The notes: generated by a model from the sequence alone, not told the origin. A stretch of DNA of 8,183 nucleotides from a virus (IMGVR_UViG_2778261512_000016), one strand, 5' to 3'. Positions 777 through 8,183 are shown, counted from the stretch's first letter. Numbers and translations: made by a program.

Positions 777-932
777 TTACTCCTCAGATTCGTAAGCTGT
801 GAAGACAGCGACCTCCGTCTGGCCGGTTCGGATTCGTACCTCGCAGAGGTCTTTCCTCGTTACCAGTGCCGTCACTATGACGGTTAAACAGATGACGATC
901 AGGGCGATTAACATCGCCTTTTGCTGCTTCAT
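777..932 (-). CDS. hokD: Hok/Gef-family small membrane toxin (type I toxin), 51 aa, closest from memory to HokD/RelF
   Basis: Translation MKQQKAMLIALIVICLTVIVTALVTRKDLCEVRIRTGQTEVAVFTAYESEE has the Hok hallmark (single TM helix, then RKxLCE ... EVAAF/VF ... YE). GGAG lies 9 nt upstream of the ATG at 932. The product is internal to the 70-aa ORF listed at 777..989. Confidence 0.85.
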   Translation of the reverse strand: MKQQKAMLIALIVICLTVIVTALVTRKDLCEVRIRTGQTEVAVFTAYESEE

Positions 933-989
933 AGCCTGCTTCTCCTTGCCTTTCGGCACGTAAGAGGCTAACCTACGTGTGTAGAGCAT
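777..989 (-). CDS. mok: mok-like reading frame (in-frame upstream extension of hok, as in mokC/hokC)
   Basis: ATG at 989 opens a 70-aa frame whose first 19 aa (MLYTRRLASYVPKGKEKQA) precede the hok Met. This resembles the in-frame mokC extension of hokC as I recall it. The function is regulatory coupling, not a distinct protein. Confidence 0.5.
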   Translation of the reverse strand: MLYTRRLASYVPKGKEKQAMKQQKAMLIALIVICLTVIVTALVTRKDLCEVRIRTGQTEVAVFTAYESEE

Positions 990-1045
990 AGATATGGCCT
1001 CAGATTAATGTTAAGCGTCTTGCCGGACGCGTAATGTTAACTGGG
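981..1045 (+). ncRNA. sok: Candidate Sok-type antisense RNA covering the mok start and SD region (boundaries approximate)
   Basis: Plus-strand promoter-like elements inside mok: -35 TTGCCT (946..951), 17-bp spacer, -10 TAACCT (969..974). The predicted start near 981 is antisense to the mok initiation region. A small hairpin GCGTC-ttgccg-GACGC lies at 1014..1029, flanked by TAATGTTAA direct repeats, and is followed by a U-rich stretch. Placement is by analogy to sokC/mokC geometry; the 3' end is uncertain. Confidence 0.35.
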
Positions 1046-1107
1046 GCTTTTCTCTATCTGCCTTTGGTGTTGATGCCCGAGGCAGATAGCCTCAAGCACC
1101 CGCAGCA

Positions 1108-1136: not shown

Positions 1137-1611
1137 TATGAAATCAATCAGAAAGGTGATCCATAAGAACAACAGCAAGACAATAAATTGCCATTACAGC
1201 AGCAATAGCCAGCGCACATTTGAGAACCAGCACCACAACCTCCTGTATTGGACGTACACCAGTCCTGATAAATATGAGGCTGTCTCGTCAGTGATTCAAT
1301 ACAACTACTGGGTATAGTTTCTATGATTTTGTTCTGTGGAAATGGAAAACAGCAACCAGTCACCACCAGCACTTCTTTAAACATGCCAAGTCACACGCAA
1401 GCCAACATTATAGTTCCCTTTGAGCGAGCAGATGAAGCTAGCAAAAATATTGATCACTTAGGATGCATTACTAACGTTGCTATGTGTTAACGAACAGGGA
1501 GTGGGTCATCAGCATAAATATTTATGCAGTAGGTTTCTTTTAGGACTAGATTAATCAAAAACATTTAGATAAAATTATAAAATCAAGAAATTGGTGGCAA
1601 TTAATCTTTAA

Positions 1612-1640
1612 TTGTGCCAGCTGAATTTCGTTATTATAGA
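1612..1640 (+). promoter_or_regulatory. Candidate promoter for the two-gene cargo operon
   Basis: -35 TTGTGC (1612..1617), 17-bp spacer, -10 TATAGA (1635..1640), followed by a T8 tract (1649..1656) and the RBS GGAGAG (1665..1670). The match is weak, and promoter-like hexamers occur readily by chance in AT-rich DNA. Confidence 0.25.
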
Positions 1641-1674
1641 AGATTAGCTTTTTTTTGAGTGTTTGGAGAGTAAA

Positions 1675-2370
1675 ATGTTAGAACCACCAAAGAGTTATAA
1701 TGAAATGTTGCCTATGCTCCATAAGGCGACTTTTATTACTACATTTATATTTTACCTATCATTAGTCATTTATGGCTACATGCCATTGGTTGGCATTAAT
1801 GCCAAGTATATCCCCCCCGTTAAAGACTACGAGGAATTTATTAAATGGATATTAACCTTTGGCATATTACCAATTGCATCTTCAGTTTTTTGGTCAGTAA
1901 TTAGTGGAGCTTTAGATCTACATAATAATGTAGCAAAAATTATTGGAATAAGGAAGATGTGGGATAGTCATTTAATTATTAAACCATTAGCAAAAATTGC
2001 AGGCGTTACGAGAAAATTAACTACTGATGAATCTCACAAGGTAATGAGTAAACTGTATTACCCAGAAGTTAAAGAGTTAAAAGACAAACATTACGTTGAA
2101 CTTTTCTGGAACAAAGTTTATTACTTTTGGGTTTTCTTTGAACATACAGTAATCGCATTTGTTACTATTTTAATAATAAGTATCGCCAAATTAACAAATA
2201 TATTCTCTGTTACTGGCTCTTTAATTAATCTTTGGTTGTGGATTATTTCTCTTGTCGCATTTGACTTCCTTATTTTCATAGCATCAGTTAAACCAAGAAC
2301 AGAAAGCCAAGTAAGACAAATACCTGATAGCAAAATAAAAGAATTCTTTAACAATAACAATATTTTTTAA
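1675..2370 (+). CDS. Hypothetical integral membrane protein, 231 aa, four predicted TM helices (two N-terminal, two C-terminal, separated by a charged soluble region of about 65 aa)
   Basis: ATG at 1675 with GGAG at 1665..1668 (the listed ORF starts at an upstream TTG at 1663). Hydrophobic segments: ATFITTFIFYLSLVIYGYMPLVGI, FIKWILTFGILPIASSVFWSVISGAL, FWVFFEHTVIAFVTILIISIAKL, VTGSLINLWLWIISLVAFDFLIFIASV. Low-GC codon usage. No family recognised by eye. Confidence 0.65.
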   Translation: MLEPPKSYNEMLPMLHKATFITTFIFYLSLVIYGYMPLVGINAKYIPPVKDYEEFIKWILTFGILPIASSVFWSVISGALDLHNNVAKIIGIRKMWDSHLIIKPLAKIAGVTRKLTTDESHKVMSKLYYPEVKELKDKHYVELFWNKVYYFWVFFEHTVIAFVTILIISIAKLTNIFSVTGSLINLWLWIISLVAFDFLIFIASVKPRTESQVRQIPDSKIKEFFNNNNIF

Positions 2371-2382
2371 ACGAGGTTGATT

Positions 2383-3036
2383 TTGAATTACAAAATAAAT
2401 GGAATAAACATACGTTCAGAAAATGCAGCGAAACCGCACACTATGCCATCTAACTATCTCTGTAAACAGATTGAAAGCACTAATAAAAATGGCAATGCCC
2501 TTGATTTTGGATGTGGAAAACTTAGATATTCAGAACAATTAGTAAATAAATTTGAAACTGTGACATTTTTAGATTCCAGAAGACAACTAGAAAGAGTGCA
2601 AATTATCAGAGGTGTACAAACCACGATTCCAGATTACGTGATAAATAACTATAAGAATGCTAATATTGTTTCTTATGAAAATATAGATAAAATAACAAAT
2701 CATTATGATTTCATACTTTGCGCAAACGTGCTTTCCGCAATTCCATGTGAATCCACAATTCACAAAGTCCTCAGTGCGATTAGAGAATTATTAAAGAGTG
2801 ATGGTGAAGCACTGATTGTCAATCAATACAAAAGTTCTTATTTCAAGAGGTACGAGAGCGGTATTAAACATTTGCATGGGTATATATACCAAAACTCTCG
2901 CAATGCTTTCTACTATGGTTTATTAGATGTGGATACTGTAAGTAAAATATGCTCAGATAATAATTTAGAAATAATAAAATCATGGAGCAAAGCAGGTAGT
3001 TCATATGTGGTTGTTGGTAAACATATACATATTTAG
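2383..3036 (+). CDS. Class I (Rossmann-fold) SAM-dependent methyltransferase-like protein, about 217 aa; not a DNA methyltransferase by motif content
   Basis: Motif I LDFGCGKL, acidic post-I residue in TVTFLD, motif II HYDFILCANVLSAIP, motif III LLKSDGEALIV. No DPPY/NPPY-type catalytic motif or target-recognition domain. Start is uncertain: TTG at 2383 sits 6 nt after GAGG (2373..2376); alternatives are TTG 2377 and ATG 2443. It begins 13 nt after the upstream stop, so it is probably co-transcribed or translationally coupled. Confidence 0.65.
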   Translation: MNYKINGINIRSENAAKPHTMPSNYLCKQIESTNKNGNALDFGCGKLRYSEQLVNKFETVTFLDSRRQLERVQIIRGVQTTIPDYVINNYKNANIVSYENIDKITNHYDFILCANVLSAIPCESTIHKVLSAIRELLKSDGEALIVNQYKSSYFKRYESGIKHLHGYIYQNSRNAFYYGLLDVDTVSKICSDNNLEIIKSWSKAGSSYVVVGKHIHI

Positions 3037-3350
3037 TTTATTTCAACAAATTATTAGAAAGAGTGATTTGCTTGTTAATTATTAGCTCGGCAGTGCCGGA
3101 TCAACATGACCCTGCCACTTAGGCCATTGCCGGTTTACCTACTTTTGTAAGGTTCAGCATGAAGTTTTTATATACTCTTCCTAATATCAATAGTGATGCT
3201 CGCTTATGTTAGCTGCTTCTTGTACATAGTAGCCTTCTCCGACAGTACTGCAATGAGCGGAGAGTAAAAGTCGATAAACAATAAGGAGGTTCACAATAAA
3301 TATTTCTCGGTGAAACTTTCAAAGCATTCTCTGTTTTGCTAAATCGACAA

Positions 3351-4250
3351 TTATAAATCAACAACATTTAGTGTTATATCAATATTATTTAGCCTTGCAA
3401 TCTCTGATGAATCACTTGCTATTTTAGCTTTTAATTTATCAATATTAATCATATCTTCATGGCTTATATAAACCATATCACCTTGGTTAACTTTAGATTT
3501 GTTCACTATGGCTTGAATAACAGACAAATCATCCATTACACCTCTCATAAATTTCACCATGCTTTGATCTTTGAAGTCAGATATCGATTTTGAACGTTGC
3601 TTACGTTGAATTGTTCCTTTTGTAATTACTTCATTAATTTCTTTTAAACCAGTGAGCATATCAGACAGACTGCCTTCGCAACTCATCCGATGTTTTATTG
3701 CATTGCGATTAATAATATTGAGTATAATTTCGAGTGAATCTTTATCACTCCATGGATGTAATGATGTATAATCATGATGGCGTCGAATGGCGTCAATCAT
3801 ATCCTGGACCATATCTTCATCTGCTTTATCGCAAAGTTCATTCACGAAATAGCTGGGGTCGATTATTTTACAATAACTTGGAGTTAGGTATCTTGAGGCT
3901 TTACAAAAACCAAAAATATATAAAGTAGAGTATTTATCTTTCAGACTCTCTCCTATTTCATTTATTTTCTCAAAAGATTCGATAGTTTTTTTAATTTTTG
4001 CTGGACTTGCATTCGTAGTAACTTGAACTGCTATCATGTTTTTATTATCAGCTAAATCAATGGCGGGAAAATTAACTTTAATCTGATTCATGTTTACCAG
4101 TTCACTCATTTTCAGCGCGCGAAACATAAAGATGGTCAATGACTCAATTATTCTTTCCATGTCATGAAAGCCTGCCTGTTTGCGTTGCGCGATATAAAGC
4201 TGGAGTAGTGCAATATCACTCTGTAAGTTTCTAATAAGTGGATCAATCAT
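3351..4250 (-). CDS. Hypothetical 299-aa protein; the N-terminal region resembles what I recall as the SMEK-type domain (NFPAIDLADNKNMIAVQVTT ... KIKKTIESF) and the C-terminal alpha-helical region contains an R-x4-H motif (RNAIKH) compatible with a HEPN-like RNase
   Basis: Long minus-strand ORF with ATG at 4250 and AAGGA 9 nt upstream; AT-rich codon usage matching the neighbouring cargo genes. Domain assignments are from memory and motif inspection only. Confidence 0.6.
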   Translation of the reverse strand: MIDPLIRNLQSDIALLQLYIAQRKQAGFHDMERIIESLTIFMFRALKMSELVNMNQIKVNFPAIDLADNKNMIAVQVTTNASPAKIKKTIESFEKINEIGESLKDKYSTLYIFGFCKASRYLTPSYCKIIDPSYFVNELCDKADEDMVQDMIDAIRRHHDYTSLHPWSDKDSLEIILNIINRNAIKHRMSCEGSLSDMLTGLKEINEVITKGTIQRKQRSKSISDFKDQSMVKFMRGVMDDLSVIQAIVNKSKVNQGDMVYISHEDMINIDKLKAKIASDSSEIARLNNIDITLNVVDL

Positions 4251-4286
4251 AGCTAATAATCCTTTTCAATGAAGCTGGAGGTGTGT

Positions 4287-4303
4287 TTAACTATTAGTTA
4301 AAT
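4287..4303. promoter_or_regulatory. Perfect 8+1+8 palindrome TTTAACTATTAGTTAAA in the 5' leader/promoter region of the 299-aa gene; candidate operator
   Basis: Read directly from the sequence, 37 to 53 bp upstream of the start codon at 4250. AT-rich context raises the chance-palindrome rate. Confidence 0.25.
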
Positions 4304-4502
4304 TTCTATTTTTATAGAAACAAGCTTTACAACTTCATCAAAGTTTCTCAAATCCTAATCCACTTTGCAAATCCACTAACCATGCTGAATGCTTTCTGTT
4401 GTTAAACATATCCGCTGCTGGCACCAAGCAGACAAACACACTAACTCTACCCTACTCCACAAAAGAGCCAATCAATATCTGAACTAATAAACTTTAATCT
4501 CA

Positions 4503-4925
4503 TCACTTCAATAAATATCGAGCATTTCCCTGATAGAATGCTAGTATGCGCTGCATAACTTCACTCTTCCGGCACTCGCGACAGATTATGTTCTGACGCC
4601 TGTCGTAGCGACGTATTTCTCCGTCAGGTAATGACCAGATAAGGTCCGGATCAACCGCAGATGGTTCCTTCAGCTTTGCCCTTGAGAGCTTTTTACGGGC
4701 ATTTTGCCAGTCCTTACGCGCCTGTTCAGACGGGAATAACCCGTAACCAGAGTTGTATACATCGCCGCTGGCAACCAGCTCTCTTGCGAGAACGCTCATC
4801 AGATATCTTGTCGCACCTGTCTTGACTTCCAGTTGCCGTAACGTCTCACGCCCACTCCGGCGTACGAGTTCAACAACCTGCCCTTTAATTTTTTCCCGCT
4901 CTTCTTGTGTAAAAACTTTTGCCAC
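4503..4925 (-). CDS. Hypothetical prophage protein, 140 aa, basic; function unknown
   Basis: GTG start at 4925 with AGGAGG 4 nt upstream; host-like GC content; it follows the replication initiator gene on the same strand. No family recognised. Confidence 0.55.
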   Translation of the reverse strand: MAKVFTQEEREKIKGQVVELVRRSGRETLRQLEVKTGATRYLMSVLARELVASGDVYNSGYGLFPSEQARKDWQNARKKLSRAKLKEPSAVDPDLIWSLPDGEIRRYDRRQNIICRECRKSEVMQRILAFYQGNARYLLK

Positions 4926-6730: not shown

Positions 6731-7138
6731 ATGGAAACAAAAAATTTAACTATCGGCGAACGCATTAGGTATCGTCGGAAAAACCTCAAACACACCCAAA
6801 GGTCTCTTGCTAAAGCCCTGAAAATCTCCCATGTGTCTGTATCACAATGGGAACGGGATGATAGTGAACCTACAGGGAAGAACCTTTTTGCCCTCAGCAA
6901 AGTATTGCAATGCTCACCAACATGGATTCTATTTGGCGATGAAGACAAGCAACCAACACCACCTGTTGAGAAGCCAGTTGCCTTATCCCCCAAAGAACTA
7001 GAGCTCCTTGAGCTGTTTAATGCACTGCCAGAATCAGAACAGGATACCCAGCTCGCCGAAATGCGAGCTCGAGTAAAAAACTTCAATAAACTCTTTGAAG
7101 AATTACTAAAAGCCCGTCAGCGGACAAATAAAAGATAA
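6731..7138 (+). CDS. dicA: CI-like HTH (XRE-family) repressor DicA, 135 aa
   Basis: Translation METKNLTIGERIRYRRKNLKHTQRSLAKALKISHVSVSQWER ... matches my recollection of E. coli DicA (135 aa). HTH in the N-terminus; divergent from the cro-like gene. Confidence 0.9.
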   Translation: METKNLTIGERIRYRRKNLKHTQRSLAKALKISHVSVSQWERDDSEPTGKNLFALSKVLQCSPTWILFGDEDKQPTPPVEKPVALSPKELELLELFNALPESEQDTQLAEMRARVKNFNKLFEELLKARQRTNKR

Positions 7139-7171: not shown

Positions 7172-7227
7172 CATGTTAGCCATAACATACAAAATTACTT
7201 GACCTATATGTTAGCCATGGCTAATCT
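7172..7227 (+). promoter_or_regulatory. Promoter of the ydfA-ydfB-ydfC operon with DicA-operator-like sites
   Basis: -35 TTGACC (7199..7204), 17-bp spacer, -10 TAATCT (7222..7227). The spacer contains the perfect 14-bp palindrome TTAGCCATGGCTAA (7211..7224), and a further copy of ATGTTAGCCAT lies at 7172..7183. The half-site TGTTAG(C/T)CA matches the dicA/dicC operator palindrome. Confidence 0.45.
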
Positions 7228-7304: not shown

Positions 7305-7460
7305 ATGGATACTATCGATCTTGGCAACAGCGAATCTCTGGTATGTGGCGTGTTCCCCAACCAGGACGGTACGTTCACCGCGATGACGTATACCAAAAGC
7401 AAAACGTTTAAAACCGAATCTGGAGCGCGTCGCTGGCTGGAAAGAAATTCAGGTGGGTGA
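7305..7460 (+). CDS. ydfA: Small prophage protein, 51 aa, YdfA-like
   Basis: ATG at 7305 with GAGG 5 nt upstream (MDTIDLGNSESLVCGVFPNQDGTFTAMTYTKSKTFKTESGARRWLERNSGG). Length and position after dicA match K-12 ydfA as I recall it. The listed ORF starts further upstream at 7251. Confidence 0.7.
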   Translation: MDTIDLGNSESLVCGVFPNQDGTFTAMTYTKSKTFKTESGARRWLERNSGG

Positions 7461-7461
7461 T

Positions 7462-7590
7462 ATGGATTTCGACACAATCATGGAAAAGGCTTACGAAGAA
7501 TACTTCGAAGGTCTTGCCGAAGGCGAAGAAGCTCTCAGCTTCAGCGAATTTAAACAGGCACTTTCCAGTTCGGCAAAATCTAACGGCTGA
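7462..7590 (+). CDS. ydfB: Small acidic prophage protein, 42 aa, YdfB-like
   Basis: ATG at 7462, 1 nt after the ydfA stop, with AGGTGGG upstream (MDFDTIMEKAYEEYFEGLAEGEEALSFSEFKQALSSSAKSNG). Below the ORF-track size cut-off; found by reading the sequence. Confidence 0.6.
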   Translation: MDFDTIMEKAYEEYFEGLAEGEEALSFSEFKQALSSSAKSNG

Positions 7591-7619
7591 TAAGCGAAAC
7601 AGCACCGCGAGGAATCAGT

Positions 7620-7838
7620 ATGCAGAAACGAGAACCCGTCATCATCGCGCCAGACTATACCGATGATGAACTTTATGAGTGGATGCGCCAGAAAATTAAT
7701 GCAGCGCAGGATCTGAAATGGGCCAATGAAGCCAGGGCTAAGCAGGCTGAAAATCTGTCCGCTCTGGAGCAGGATATCACTAATCTGGAAAAAGCAGCGA
7801 CATTAAGCATTGCCAGAATGATTACATACCCGCGTTAA
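7620..7838 (+). CDS. ydfC: Small prophage protein, 72 aa, YdfC-like
   Basis: ATG at 7620 with GAGG 7 nt upstream (MQKREPVIIAPDYTDDELYEWMRQKINAAQDLKWANEARAKQAENLSALEQDITNLEKAATLSIARMITYPR). Third gene of the dicA-downstream operon. Confidence 0.75.
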   Translation: MQKREPVIIAPDYTDDELYEWMRQKINAAQDLKWANEARAKQAENLSALEQDITNLEKAATLSIARMITYPR

Positions 7839-8183
7839 TAGCTAACCAACGAAGCTAAGGTTGGTAATTAAGGAGTTCTCCACGGATGAGGTGGAGTGCG
7901 TGCGCCGGACACGGGTGAGCATCCGGCACTGACAGTTTACTGAAAGGATATTTCCCTGAAAAGTCAGACCATAACGCGAAAGCGCACGGCGAGGTAGCTG
8001 GTTCATAGATAGCCTGTCGTTAAATTTTCGTCGACCGTGCGCTTCCGGTTGTGGCAATCCGCGAAATGGCGCGGCGGTAAGTATGGCGGGGTTATTCCTT
8101 CCCCCGTTGAGGACACCGGGTTGTCAGGTTGACCATACGCTTAAGTGACAACCCCGCTGCAACGCCCTCTGTTATCAATTTTC

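Follow-up and report, generated by a model that had tools for sequence, protein, structure and literature searches.

Background

The DicF locus of Escherichia coli is among the oldest known sRNA precursors. In K-12, DicF is released by processing of a polycistronic RNA whose start lies upstream of ydfA; a 190-nt species owes its 5′ end to RNase III, and the 53-nt species owes its own to RNase E (Ragunathan et al. 2023, bioRxiv 10.1101/2023.04.14.536235); in its treatment of DicF processing, this study confirms Faubladier, Cam & Bouche (1990). The same study places the RNase III cut "between positions 813 and 814". It also finds that stationary-phase cells accumulate the 190-nt species, that inactivation of RNase E increases its level, and that K-12 Northern blots detect no read-through transcripts into dicB (bioRxiv 10.1101/2023.04.14.536235). 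The dependence of the DicF 5′ end on RNase E is described both there and by Balasubramanian et al. (2016, PMC5069750), who assign the 3′ end to DicF's own Rho-independent terminator and find that 53-nt DicF is active alone when ectopically expressed.

Several described systems offer points of comparison. In lambda-type phages, N/nut provides terminator read-through in the early-left operon, ahead of kil and the recombination genes, and needs both the N protein and a boxA/boxB site. In the case of HK022, terminator read-through by put RNAs involves the β′ zinc-binding domain of RNA polymerase. The two RNAs, putL and putR, are antiterminators that work in cis by binding the polymerase (Hwang et al. 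2022, PMC9378689); a put RNA is ~70 nt long and consists of two stem-loops and a triplex (PMC9378689). In transcription-terminating riboswitches, a P1 helix closes a structured domain that contains a pseudoknot, and an intrinsic terminator lies close behind. In phage P1, a misc_feature located after Pban (NC_005856, 68791–68892) is named 'dicF-like region', and the record gives this similarity label only.

The locus analysed here shares its position, gene order, RNase III hairpin and RNase E site with the Qin spacer and 190-nt DicF precursor of K-12, and no material difference exists between the two. Within the spacer lies a pseudoknotted RNA domain that also occurs at the labelled region of phage P1. 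Like HK022 put, this domain is a compact RNA fold situated early in a repressor-controlled early operon of apparently N-less phages, upstream of terminators. However, it measures ~116 nt and contains four helices and a pseudoknot, compared with the ~70 nt and two stem-loops of put, and it is present in one copy per phage instead of two.

Assignment of the tail to the dicBF operon

The window, by which we mean the whole stretch of DNA analysed (8,183 nt, IMGVR_UViG_2778261512_000016), is a lambdoid, Qin-like prophage immunity region. It carries a sok/hok locus (Rfam sok, 114 bits, 927–1101, minus strand), a YdaT-family gene, a cro/dicC-like gene and an HTH repressor (6731–7138), followed by ydfA, ydfB and ydfC (7305–7838), and its ORFs match the PHROGs of ydfA/B/C, the HTH repressor and YdaT. 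A promoter-like site with a −10 element at 7222–7227 is located upstream of ydfA (7199–7227). The upstream edge of the spacer is formed by ydfC (7620–7838, plus strand), a 72-aa ORF matching phrog_1744 and annotated as ydfC in RefSeq genomes of 100% identity. The tail, 345 nt in length (7839–8183), starts after the ydfC stop codon. It had been described as GC-rich in the first-pass annotation, which is correct relative to the AT-rich window (53% against 42% G+C) but not in absolute terms, 53% being usual for E. coli.

Sequence comparison indicates, with a probability of about 90%, that the tail is the normal ydfC–dicF intercistronic region in the dicBF (early-left) operon of a Qin-like lambdoid prophage, with dicF starting at 8180 and cut by the end of the window. 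A megablast search with 7600–8183 has hits in 4339 of the 5426 complete genomes of E. coli, many of them identical; the tail is 100% identical to E. coli E2348/69 and near-identical (≥99% identity) to 141 records. The alignment with K-12 is collinear over the full length at 97.4% identity (336/345 positions), including eight substitutions and one 1-nt indel. Here the spacer measures 341 nt. In K-12 MG1655, where ydfC ends at L003 position 4042 and dicF is annotated at 4383–4435, it measures 340 nt and not the ~260 bp given in the first-pass annotation.

In E2348/69, the identical DNA passes across the window end from ...TCAATTTTC into TGGTGACGTTTGGCGGTATCAG...CCGCCCTTTTT, and Rfam DicF (RF00039) is found at L001 4582–4633 in full length (model positions 1–52 of 52), scoring 76.7 bits against a gathering score of 48. 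Position 4582 corresponds to window position 8181, and the K-12 annotation of dicF starts one base earlier, at 8180. Only the first three to four nucleotides of dicF are inside the window (TTTC, 8180–8183, plus strand; UUUC in the RNA, DicF nt 1–4), as judged from RF00039 in E2348/69 and from the K-12 and phage Tritos annotations. DicF sits between ydfC and dicB in E2348/69, K-12 and Tritos, at the equivalent position in the last, and the gene order in E2348/69 is dicA-ydfA-ydfB-ydfC-spacer-dicB-ydfD-exonuclease-xis-int. Past 8183, the source genome would continue with CTGGTGACGTTTGGCGG..., or, written at greater length, with CTGGTGACGTTTGGCGGTATCAG...CCGCCCTTTTT, and dicB would follow ~175 nt on. 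Alignments, synteny and Rfam yielded no evidence contrary to this assignment.

The first-pass annotation had reported no recognisable dicF, and had proposed a divergent processed sRNA, an RNase III substrate, or the 5′ structured RNA of an element continuing beyond the window. The absence of dicF is true of the window letters only: a scan of the window misses DicF because the window ends 4 nt into the gene, and the Rfam DicF and retron models return nothing in the tail itself, DicF appearing once flanking sequence is added. The RNase III substrate and the structured 5′ RNA are both present, the former being established knowledge from the literature on the 190-nt DicF species, and the continuing element is dicF itself. 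That the tail instead lacks dicF or has it replaced, by a divergent processed sRNA or by the 5′ RNA of another element such as a retron msr/msd, can practically be dismissed. It would agree with a DicF core missing from the window and with the lack of any Rfam family on 7500–8183 even at E ≤ 10, but identical genomic DNA goes on to full-length DicF, dicB, ydfD and the exonuclease, and the K-12 spacer has nearly the same length at 97.4% identity. A retron was rejected in particular, with no Rfam match and with dicB, ydfD, exonuclease, xis and int, but no reverse transcriptase, in the downstream region where dicB or a reverse transcriptase had been looked for. A tRNA-like or tmRNA element was likewise rejected, ARAGORN finding 0 genes in the window and Rfam giving no hit. 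The alignment shows exactly the arrangement that the annotation had named as contrary to its own reading, an ordinary ydfC–dicF spacer with dicF just past the window end. The locus is already known, the tail is a member and not a relative of the K-12 DicF precursor, and the reported anomaly is an artefact of the window boundary combined with a mistaken K-12 distance.

Hairpins and predicted processing sites of the spacer

All the inverted repeats noted in the first-pass annotation are present at their coordinates, and they belong to separate parts of the spacer. A variable linker, or mosaic junction, follows the ydfC stop (7839–7858, plus strand), and homology with phiSTEC1589/PhiR5_2 and the PPompW phages begins at ~7859. 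In the PPompW phages, an extra 135-aa ORF is inserted at this junction. The 5′ part of the spacer (7859–7961, plus strand) contains two small hairpins, CTCCAC/GTGGAG at 7878–7896 and GCCGGA/TCCGGC at 7904–7927 (arms 7904–7909/7922–7927), the latter losing one pair in K-12 through 7927 C>A. This part is conserved at ~82% in phiSTEC1589/PhiR5_2, without informative covariation, and its fold is not above shuffles (z = −0.81).

The long imperfect hairpin that follows (7969–8054, plus strand; also delimited as 7962–8060) is the predicted RNase III substrate. Its core duplex is a 13-nt repeat, 7977–7989/8035–8047, which is 92% complementary and encloses GCGCACGG/CCGTGCGC. With an MFE of −37.4 kcal/mol, the hairpin is more stable than all of the shuffles (z = −3.37, 0/200), and it forms an extended, mostly double-stranded helix of ~20 bp or longer, as is expected of an RNase III substrate. 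The diverged copy in phiSTEC1589 adopts this hairpin too, its apical sequence being different (z = −3.56), and in K-12 the stem substitution 7987 C>U retains the pair as U.G. For the whole 345-nt tail, the comparison of MFE with dinucleotide shuffles gives z = −2.54 (1/100). The tail therefore folds better than its shuffles, as the description 'highly structured' implied, but this is mainly due to the long hairpin, the 5′ part and the 3′ domain being unexceptional.

Two calculations from K-12 data would place the RNase III cut, and thereby the 5′ end of the 190-nt species, at 8042–8047 (plus strand). Subtraction of 190 nt from the DicF 3′ end would give a cut at window ~8042. Counting "813/814" from a start ~7 nt after the −10 element (7222–7227), which is an assumed origin of the numbering, would give 8046/8047. 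Both positions fall in the 3′ arm of the 13-nt repeat, and a literature search of RNase III mapping papers gave no coordinates for the spacer cut. A single-stranded A/U-rich linker (8164–8179, plus strand), delimited by the K-12 dicF 5′ end and the alignment, ends at the RNase E site (8179/8180). Since the tail is 97.4% identical to K-12, where these steps are documented, the same processing is predicted here. The spacer would be transcribed from a DicA-repressed promoter upstream of ydfA within the ydfABC-dicF-dicB polycistronic RNA; RNase III would cut the long hairpin at ~8042–8047 to yield the 190-nt species; RNase E would cut the linker at 8179/8180 to yield 53-nt DicF; and DicF's intrinsic terminator, located shortly past the window end, would set the 3′ end. 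The base of the long hairpin (7969–7975/8048–8054) and the closing helix P1 of the downstream domain use the same strand, 8048–8054, so that the two structures compete.

The tail had also been described as devoid of a credible ORF, and this description stands: the small ORFs have no Pfam hit, and the sole PHROG hit lies in a frame that is not conserved. A small protein encoded by the plus-strand ORF 8037–8132, which hits phrog_8854 with E = 6e-19, or by a minus-strand ORF at 7842–8057, whose equivalent of 7842–8006 is annotated by PGAP as WP_001340038.1 in some genomes, is highly improbable. Segment lengths corresponding to 8037–8132 occur in all three mod-3 classes (78/56/15), the peptide shifts frame or ends early between close relatives, K-12 differing by a 1-nt indel, and the substitutions track base-pairing instead of codons. 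The minus-strand ORF has no Pfam hit and a non-significant PHROG match (E = 0.34), and it is unannotated in K-12 and E2348/69. A phrog_8854-like gene was thus rejected, as the frame is not kept across homologs.

Architecture of the conserved RNA domain

Comparative analysis shows that positions 8048–8163 (plus strand) constitute a discrete, evolutionarily conserved RNA domain of 116 nt with a pseudoknot, covariation and a covariance model both supporting it. In the proposed structure, the domain is closed by helix P1 (8048–8055/8156–8163) and encloses P2 (8059–8063/8070–8074), the variable hairpin P3 (8087–8091/8102–8106) and P4 (8118–8126/8146–8154), all on the plus strand. The pseudoknot (8081–8086/8133–8138) has its 3′ strand in the loop of P4. 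Near-invariant unpaired nucleotides adjoin the covarying stems. Folded alone, the 3′ domain is thermodynamically unexceptional (z = −0.89); hence, the evidence for it is evolutionary.

Copies of the domain were gathered from IMG/VR and metagenomes by two-part sequence patterns, giving 96 distinct versions. The patterns fixed GGCGGTAAG, ATGG and GGTTGACCAT, and the invariance of these motifs and of five of the six pseudoknot pairs is therefore a matter of construction. The pseudoknot pair left free by the patterns is U–A in 103 copies, C–G in nine and U.G in two, with no mismatch. In the MAFFT alignment, 95.5% of cells pair, compared with 33–57% when the partners are slid, and double-sided changes occur in eight pairs (24 cells, against 3.7 ± 1.8 in shuffled alignments; 0/500). 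The model-based alignment of the 96 distinct copies, which leans towards the model and in which related E. coli prophages dominate, is 95.9% paired and has double changes in 18 of 33 pairs (57 cells, against 7.7 ± 2.4; 0/500), slid controls giving 3–31. Independently of any alignment, P3 is represented by about ten different stem sequences, each of which forms a hairpin at the same place. Furthermore, P4 is swapped completely in one metagenomic copy, where GGAUCACCA/UGGUGAUCC replaces GGGUUGUCA/UGACAACCC.

With the MAFFT alignment as input, RNAalifold yielded a weak consensus without compensatory pairs because MAFFT misplaces the variable P3 hairpin; this result was replaced by the explicit structure test and the model-based realignment described above. 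Of the overlapping stems listed in the first-pass annotation, GGTTGTCA/TGACAACC is a genuine helix backed by evolution, whereas GCGGGGTT/AACCCCGC has no covariation support. The arms GGGTTGTCA/TGACAACCC are situated at 8118–8126/8146–8154, and those of GCGGGGTT../..AACCCCGC at 8086–8100/8143–8157. As an alternative stem, GCGGGGTT/AACCCCGC was rejected, since it does not outperform shuffles and its pairing is disrupted by one-sided changes.

The covariance model built from the domain, R1, scores real copies at 90–175 bits and everything else below 11; the domain is present as a single copy per locus and on the sense strand only. Rfam 15, searched with gathering and permissive thresholds (E ≤ 10), has no family for it. 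A full-text literature search with the core sequence returned unrelated primers only, and the accounts of DicF processing consulted, including Ragunathan et al. (2023) and Balasubramanian et al. (2016), describe no structured domain.

Distribution and neighbourhood of the domain

By sequence comparison, the spacer is a mosaic of separable parts. In a distant blastn search against phages, window ~7859–8054, which includes the small hairpins and the RNase III hairpin, matches phiSTEC1589 and PhiR5_2 at ~82% identity. Window ~8048–8171 matches cdtI, Ayreon, 2H10, Stx2c phages, a Salmonella phage, a phage deposited as Actinobacillus phage, P7 and P1 at 76–90% identity. Other temperate phages thus carry the domain in the absence of both ydfABC and DicF. 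Among 120 matches to a 15-base pattern in genome contigs, nearly all are due to chance, and only the copy in E. albertii (L145) is real. In phiSTEC1589/PhiR5_2, the RNase III hairpin is kept as far as ...CCGGUUGUG, followed by AAUA-ACAAC and a DicF-like terminator; the P1 strands remain as a plain hairpin, P2–P4 are absent, and R1 finds nothing in either phage. On this comparison, the domain is a discrete, optional insert.

In the case of phage P1, the same domain (95 bits with R1) is located at the 'dicF-like region' and is followed by an intrinsic terminator. The P1 copy differs from the present one in lacking ydfABC, the RNase III hairpin and the DicF seed, with the domain almost at the start of transcription, and it contains compensatory changes in P3, P4 and the pseudoknot. 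Among all copies with enough downstream sequence, a hairpin and T-run follow the domain in 221 of 224, ~25–85 nt on. The terminators fall into six or more sequence types unrelated to one another, and the DicF 5′ seed is found in only 147 of the 224.

In every context examined, the domain is found near the beginning of an operon under repressor control. The P1 copy begins ~25 nt past the −10 of Pban, which C1 controls; the cdtI copy lies ~275 nt after a strong pL-like promoter; and the copies of Qin-type prophages follow ydfABC. Downstream are dicB or kil and recombination genes, or, in P1, tRNAs and the tci/ban genes. The annotation of the Ayreon operon includes a second, internal terminator, and a literature search for transcriptomics of the P1 ban leader returned nothing relevant. 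No N gene is annotated between repressor and domain in eleven domain-bearing contexts. Likewise, a PHROG scan of early-left proteins from five of these contexts, including an unannotated Stx2c record, detects no N family. In a wider batch PHROG scan for N-type proteins, which listed families with at least three members, the positive control was not visible, and that scan does not bear on the presence of N. The apparent absence of N is drawn from about a dozen annotated phages. In contrast, N is present in this operon of PhiR5_2, a phage without the domain; the annotations of PhiR5_2, PhiR40_1 and PhiR42_1 come from a single pipeline.

Possible functions of the domain

As a leading but tentative proposal, the domain may be a cis-acting control of the intrinsic terminator behind it, exerted on the nascent transcript by antitermination or conditional attenuation. 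The proposal stems from four features: a terminator of varied sequence accompanies the domain almost without exception, the domain lies early in its operon, the genes downstream are toxic, and N is apparently absent. Such control would gate a toxic division inhibitor (dicB/kil) together with the rest of the early-left operon in N-less phages. Against it, relatives without the domain keep the terminator; read-through into dicB is undetected on K-12 Northern blots (bioRxiv 10.1101/2023.04.14.536235); and a stable 190-nt RNA fits a trans-acting or scaffold role equally well. Inspection by eye of the five main terminator types revealed no conserved antiterminator pairing with the domain. In its broader form, which is somewhat more doubtful, the domain would represent a new class of phage cis-acting RNA that causes RNA polymerase to read through, or stop conditionally at, the next terminator, a protein-independent analogue of N/nut and HK022 put that is related to neither by sequence or fold. 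Such a class would gate dicB, kil, P1 tci and the early-left/ban operons in many enterobacterial temperate phages, and DicF would be a terminator-derived by-product of the control point. The domain has no homology to the one known RNA antiterminator, since R1 gives nothing above noise at putL (~28310, minus strand), at putR or elsewhere in HK022, and blastn finds no match to putL/putR; the strings GCGCGGCGG and GGGUU..CAGG..UGA..C shared with putL appear to be chance, and homology with put was rejected.

The main competitor of cis control, itself uncertain, is that the domain forms the 5′ body of a stable phage RNA of ~190 nt composed of domain, linker and terminator. Such an RNA would bind a host protein or have some other action in trans, or it would be a protective or processing scaffold that sets the RNase III/RNase E cut sites and the yield of short sRNA. 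The accumulation of the 190-nt species in stationary phase and its rise when RNase E is inactivated (bioRxiv 10.1101/2023.04.14.536235) agree with this, as does its 5′ end, which by the arithmetic mapping coincides with the start of helix P1; the predicted transcript of phage P1 from Pban to the first terminator is also ~190 nt. In addition, RNase III cleavage could free helix P1 to form, given the competition for 8048–8054, and the linker and terminator vary like a swappable 'seed'. However, 53-nt DicF works alone when ectopically expressed (PMC5069750), so that DicF activity is independent of the domain; sRNA families usually conserve the seed instead of the 5′ body; no protein partner is known; and relatives without the domain still possess the hairpin plus terminator. 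A riboswitch-like aptamer sensing a ligand or condition, with the downstream terminator as expression platform, is less probable. The closed multi-helix junction, the pseudoknot and the near-invariant unpaired nucleotides do resemble an aptamer, and an intrinsic terminator does lie closely downstream of the conserved structured domain. Yet there is no Rfam riboswitch match, inspection of the five main terminator types showed no conserved switching helix between the 3′ strand of helix P1 and the differing terminators, the T-run lies at a variable 25–85 nt after the domain, and the gene context, consisting of downstream division inhibitors and recombination genes, hints at no ligand and points to no metabolite. 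Least credible among the functional readings is a functionless domain that hitch-hikes with dicF in a recombining mosaic block. Most copies are indeed near-identical E. coli prophage sequences, but compensatory changes are found in four helices and the pseudoknot, and the domain is kept in P1, P7, a Salmonella phage and diverged metagenomic copies with unrelated flanks and terminator.

Biological implications

The tail as originally flagged has no importance in itself; what may be important is the domain found as a by-product. The 137 nt that separate 190-nt from 53-nt DicF are not filler and contain a discrete RNA domain supported by covariation, which travels independently of DicF among lambdoid phages and P1, almost always (221/224) with an intrinsic terminator behind it. 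If a stable trans-acting RNA body is the correct reading, the long DicF isoform would be redefined. If control of the terminator by the domain is correct instead, the domain would have only one known kind of precedent among the RNA-only devices for antitermination or attenuation in lambdoid phages, and it would explain the expression of dicB/kil and the recombination genes in N-less Qin/Rac-type prophages.

A conserved RNA domain in the ydfC–dicF spacer

Upstream of dicF, the spacer contains an RNA domain of approximately 116 nt (window 8048–8163), which comprises four helices and a pseudoknot, displays strong covariation, and is represented by no family in Rfam. The first-pass annotation had flagged a structured tail at 7839–8183; the domain is situated inside these coordinates, but it is something other than the feature described there. 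The same domain is common to Qin-type prophages, other lambdoid phages, and the ban leader of P1/P7, and an intrinsic terminator nearly always comes after it. Copies are located in the retrieved records of P1 (L004 1983–2120), cdtI (L005 1994–2133), and vB_Apl-pPE4 (L006 1984–2130), as well as in record L007 (1994–2137).

Two ORFs overlap the spacer. On the plus strand, the ORF at window 8037–8132 matches the PHROG family phrog_8854 ("unknown function", E = 6e-19); its reading frame is not kept among the homologs, and this family was probably built from spurious ORF calls across the conserved RNA domain. On the minus strand, antisense to the spacer, a 54-aa "hypothetical protein" (WP_001340038.1; window 7842–8006, L369 843–1007) is annotated by PGAP in some genomes and unannotated in K-12 and E2348/69, with no Pfam match and only a non-significant PHROG match.

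Natural variants and the upstream junction

The phages phiSTEC1589 (L370 1201–1480) and PhiR5_2 (L371 1201–1480) represent natural "deletion" variants in which the domain interior is missing, while the RNase III hairpin and the DicF-like terminator are retained and the strands of helix P1 persist as a plain hairpin. In PhiR5_2, a gene for antitermination protein N is located upstream in the same operon (L374 2312–2695). In addition, a metagenomic variant (L340 333–473) joins the spacer sequence ACGCGAAA (window ~7973) straight to the domain sequence CCGCGAAA (window ~8059), so that the 5' strand of P1 and the greater part of the RNase III hairpin are lost, apparently through a deletion between short CGCGAAA repeats.

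At the other end of the spacer, PPompW_132418 (L379 1042–1449) contains an additional 135-aa hypothetical ORF (~630 bp) between ydfC and the conserved part, and such an insertion is also present in the Stx2a PPompW phages and in phage Evi; it marks window ~7839–7858 as a mosaic junction.

Further observations in related phage records

In vB_Apl-pPE4, the DicF-like terminator exists as a tandem duplicate (L006 2134–2147 and 2227–2240). The assignment of this phage to an Actinobacillus host, under which it was deposited, appears doubtful, given that it possesses ydaT and dicA genes and is ~85% identical to E. coli sequence. STnc100-like matches below threshold are situated between the terminator and kil in vB_Apl-pPE4 (L006 2266–2450) and upstream of tciA in P1 (L004 3342–3461), which suggests a further conserved RNA block before the division-inhibitor gene. 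The 254-kb jumbo phage record of Aeromonas phage AP1 (MT713136.1) contains 70 nt (249906–249975) that match dicF of E. coli together with its flank at 98.6% identity, oddly placed there and possibly reflecting an assembly or contamination issue.

Other loci in the window

Upstream of ydfA, a promoter-like element, TTGACC-17-TAATCT (window 7199–7227), is flanked and overlapped by two copies of ATGTTAGCCAT (7173–7183 and 7208–7218); the 7173–7227 site presumably corresponds to dicBp and the operators bound by DicA. A full-length match to sok antitoxin RNA (Rfam RF01794, 114 bits) on the minus strand at window 927–1101 implies a hok/sok-type toxin–antitoxin locus. Furthermore, window 1350–4350 forms a strongly AT-rich island (27–37% G+C, versus 42% in the whole window), encoding a 235-aa ORF without a Pfam match (1663–2370, plus strand), a SAM-dependent methyltransferase (2377–3036, plus strand), and a SMEK-domain protein (3351–4250, minus strand) matching the PADLOC model "Aga_REase-PNTD" (8.6e-21). 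This island may constitute anti-phage defence cargo of the prophage.
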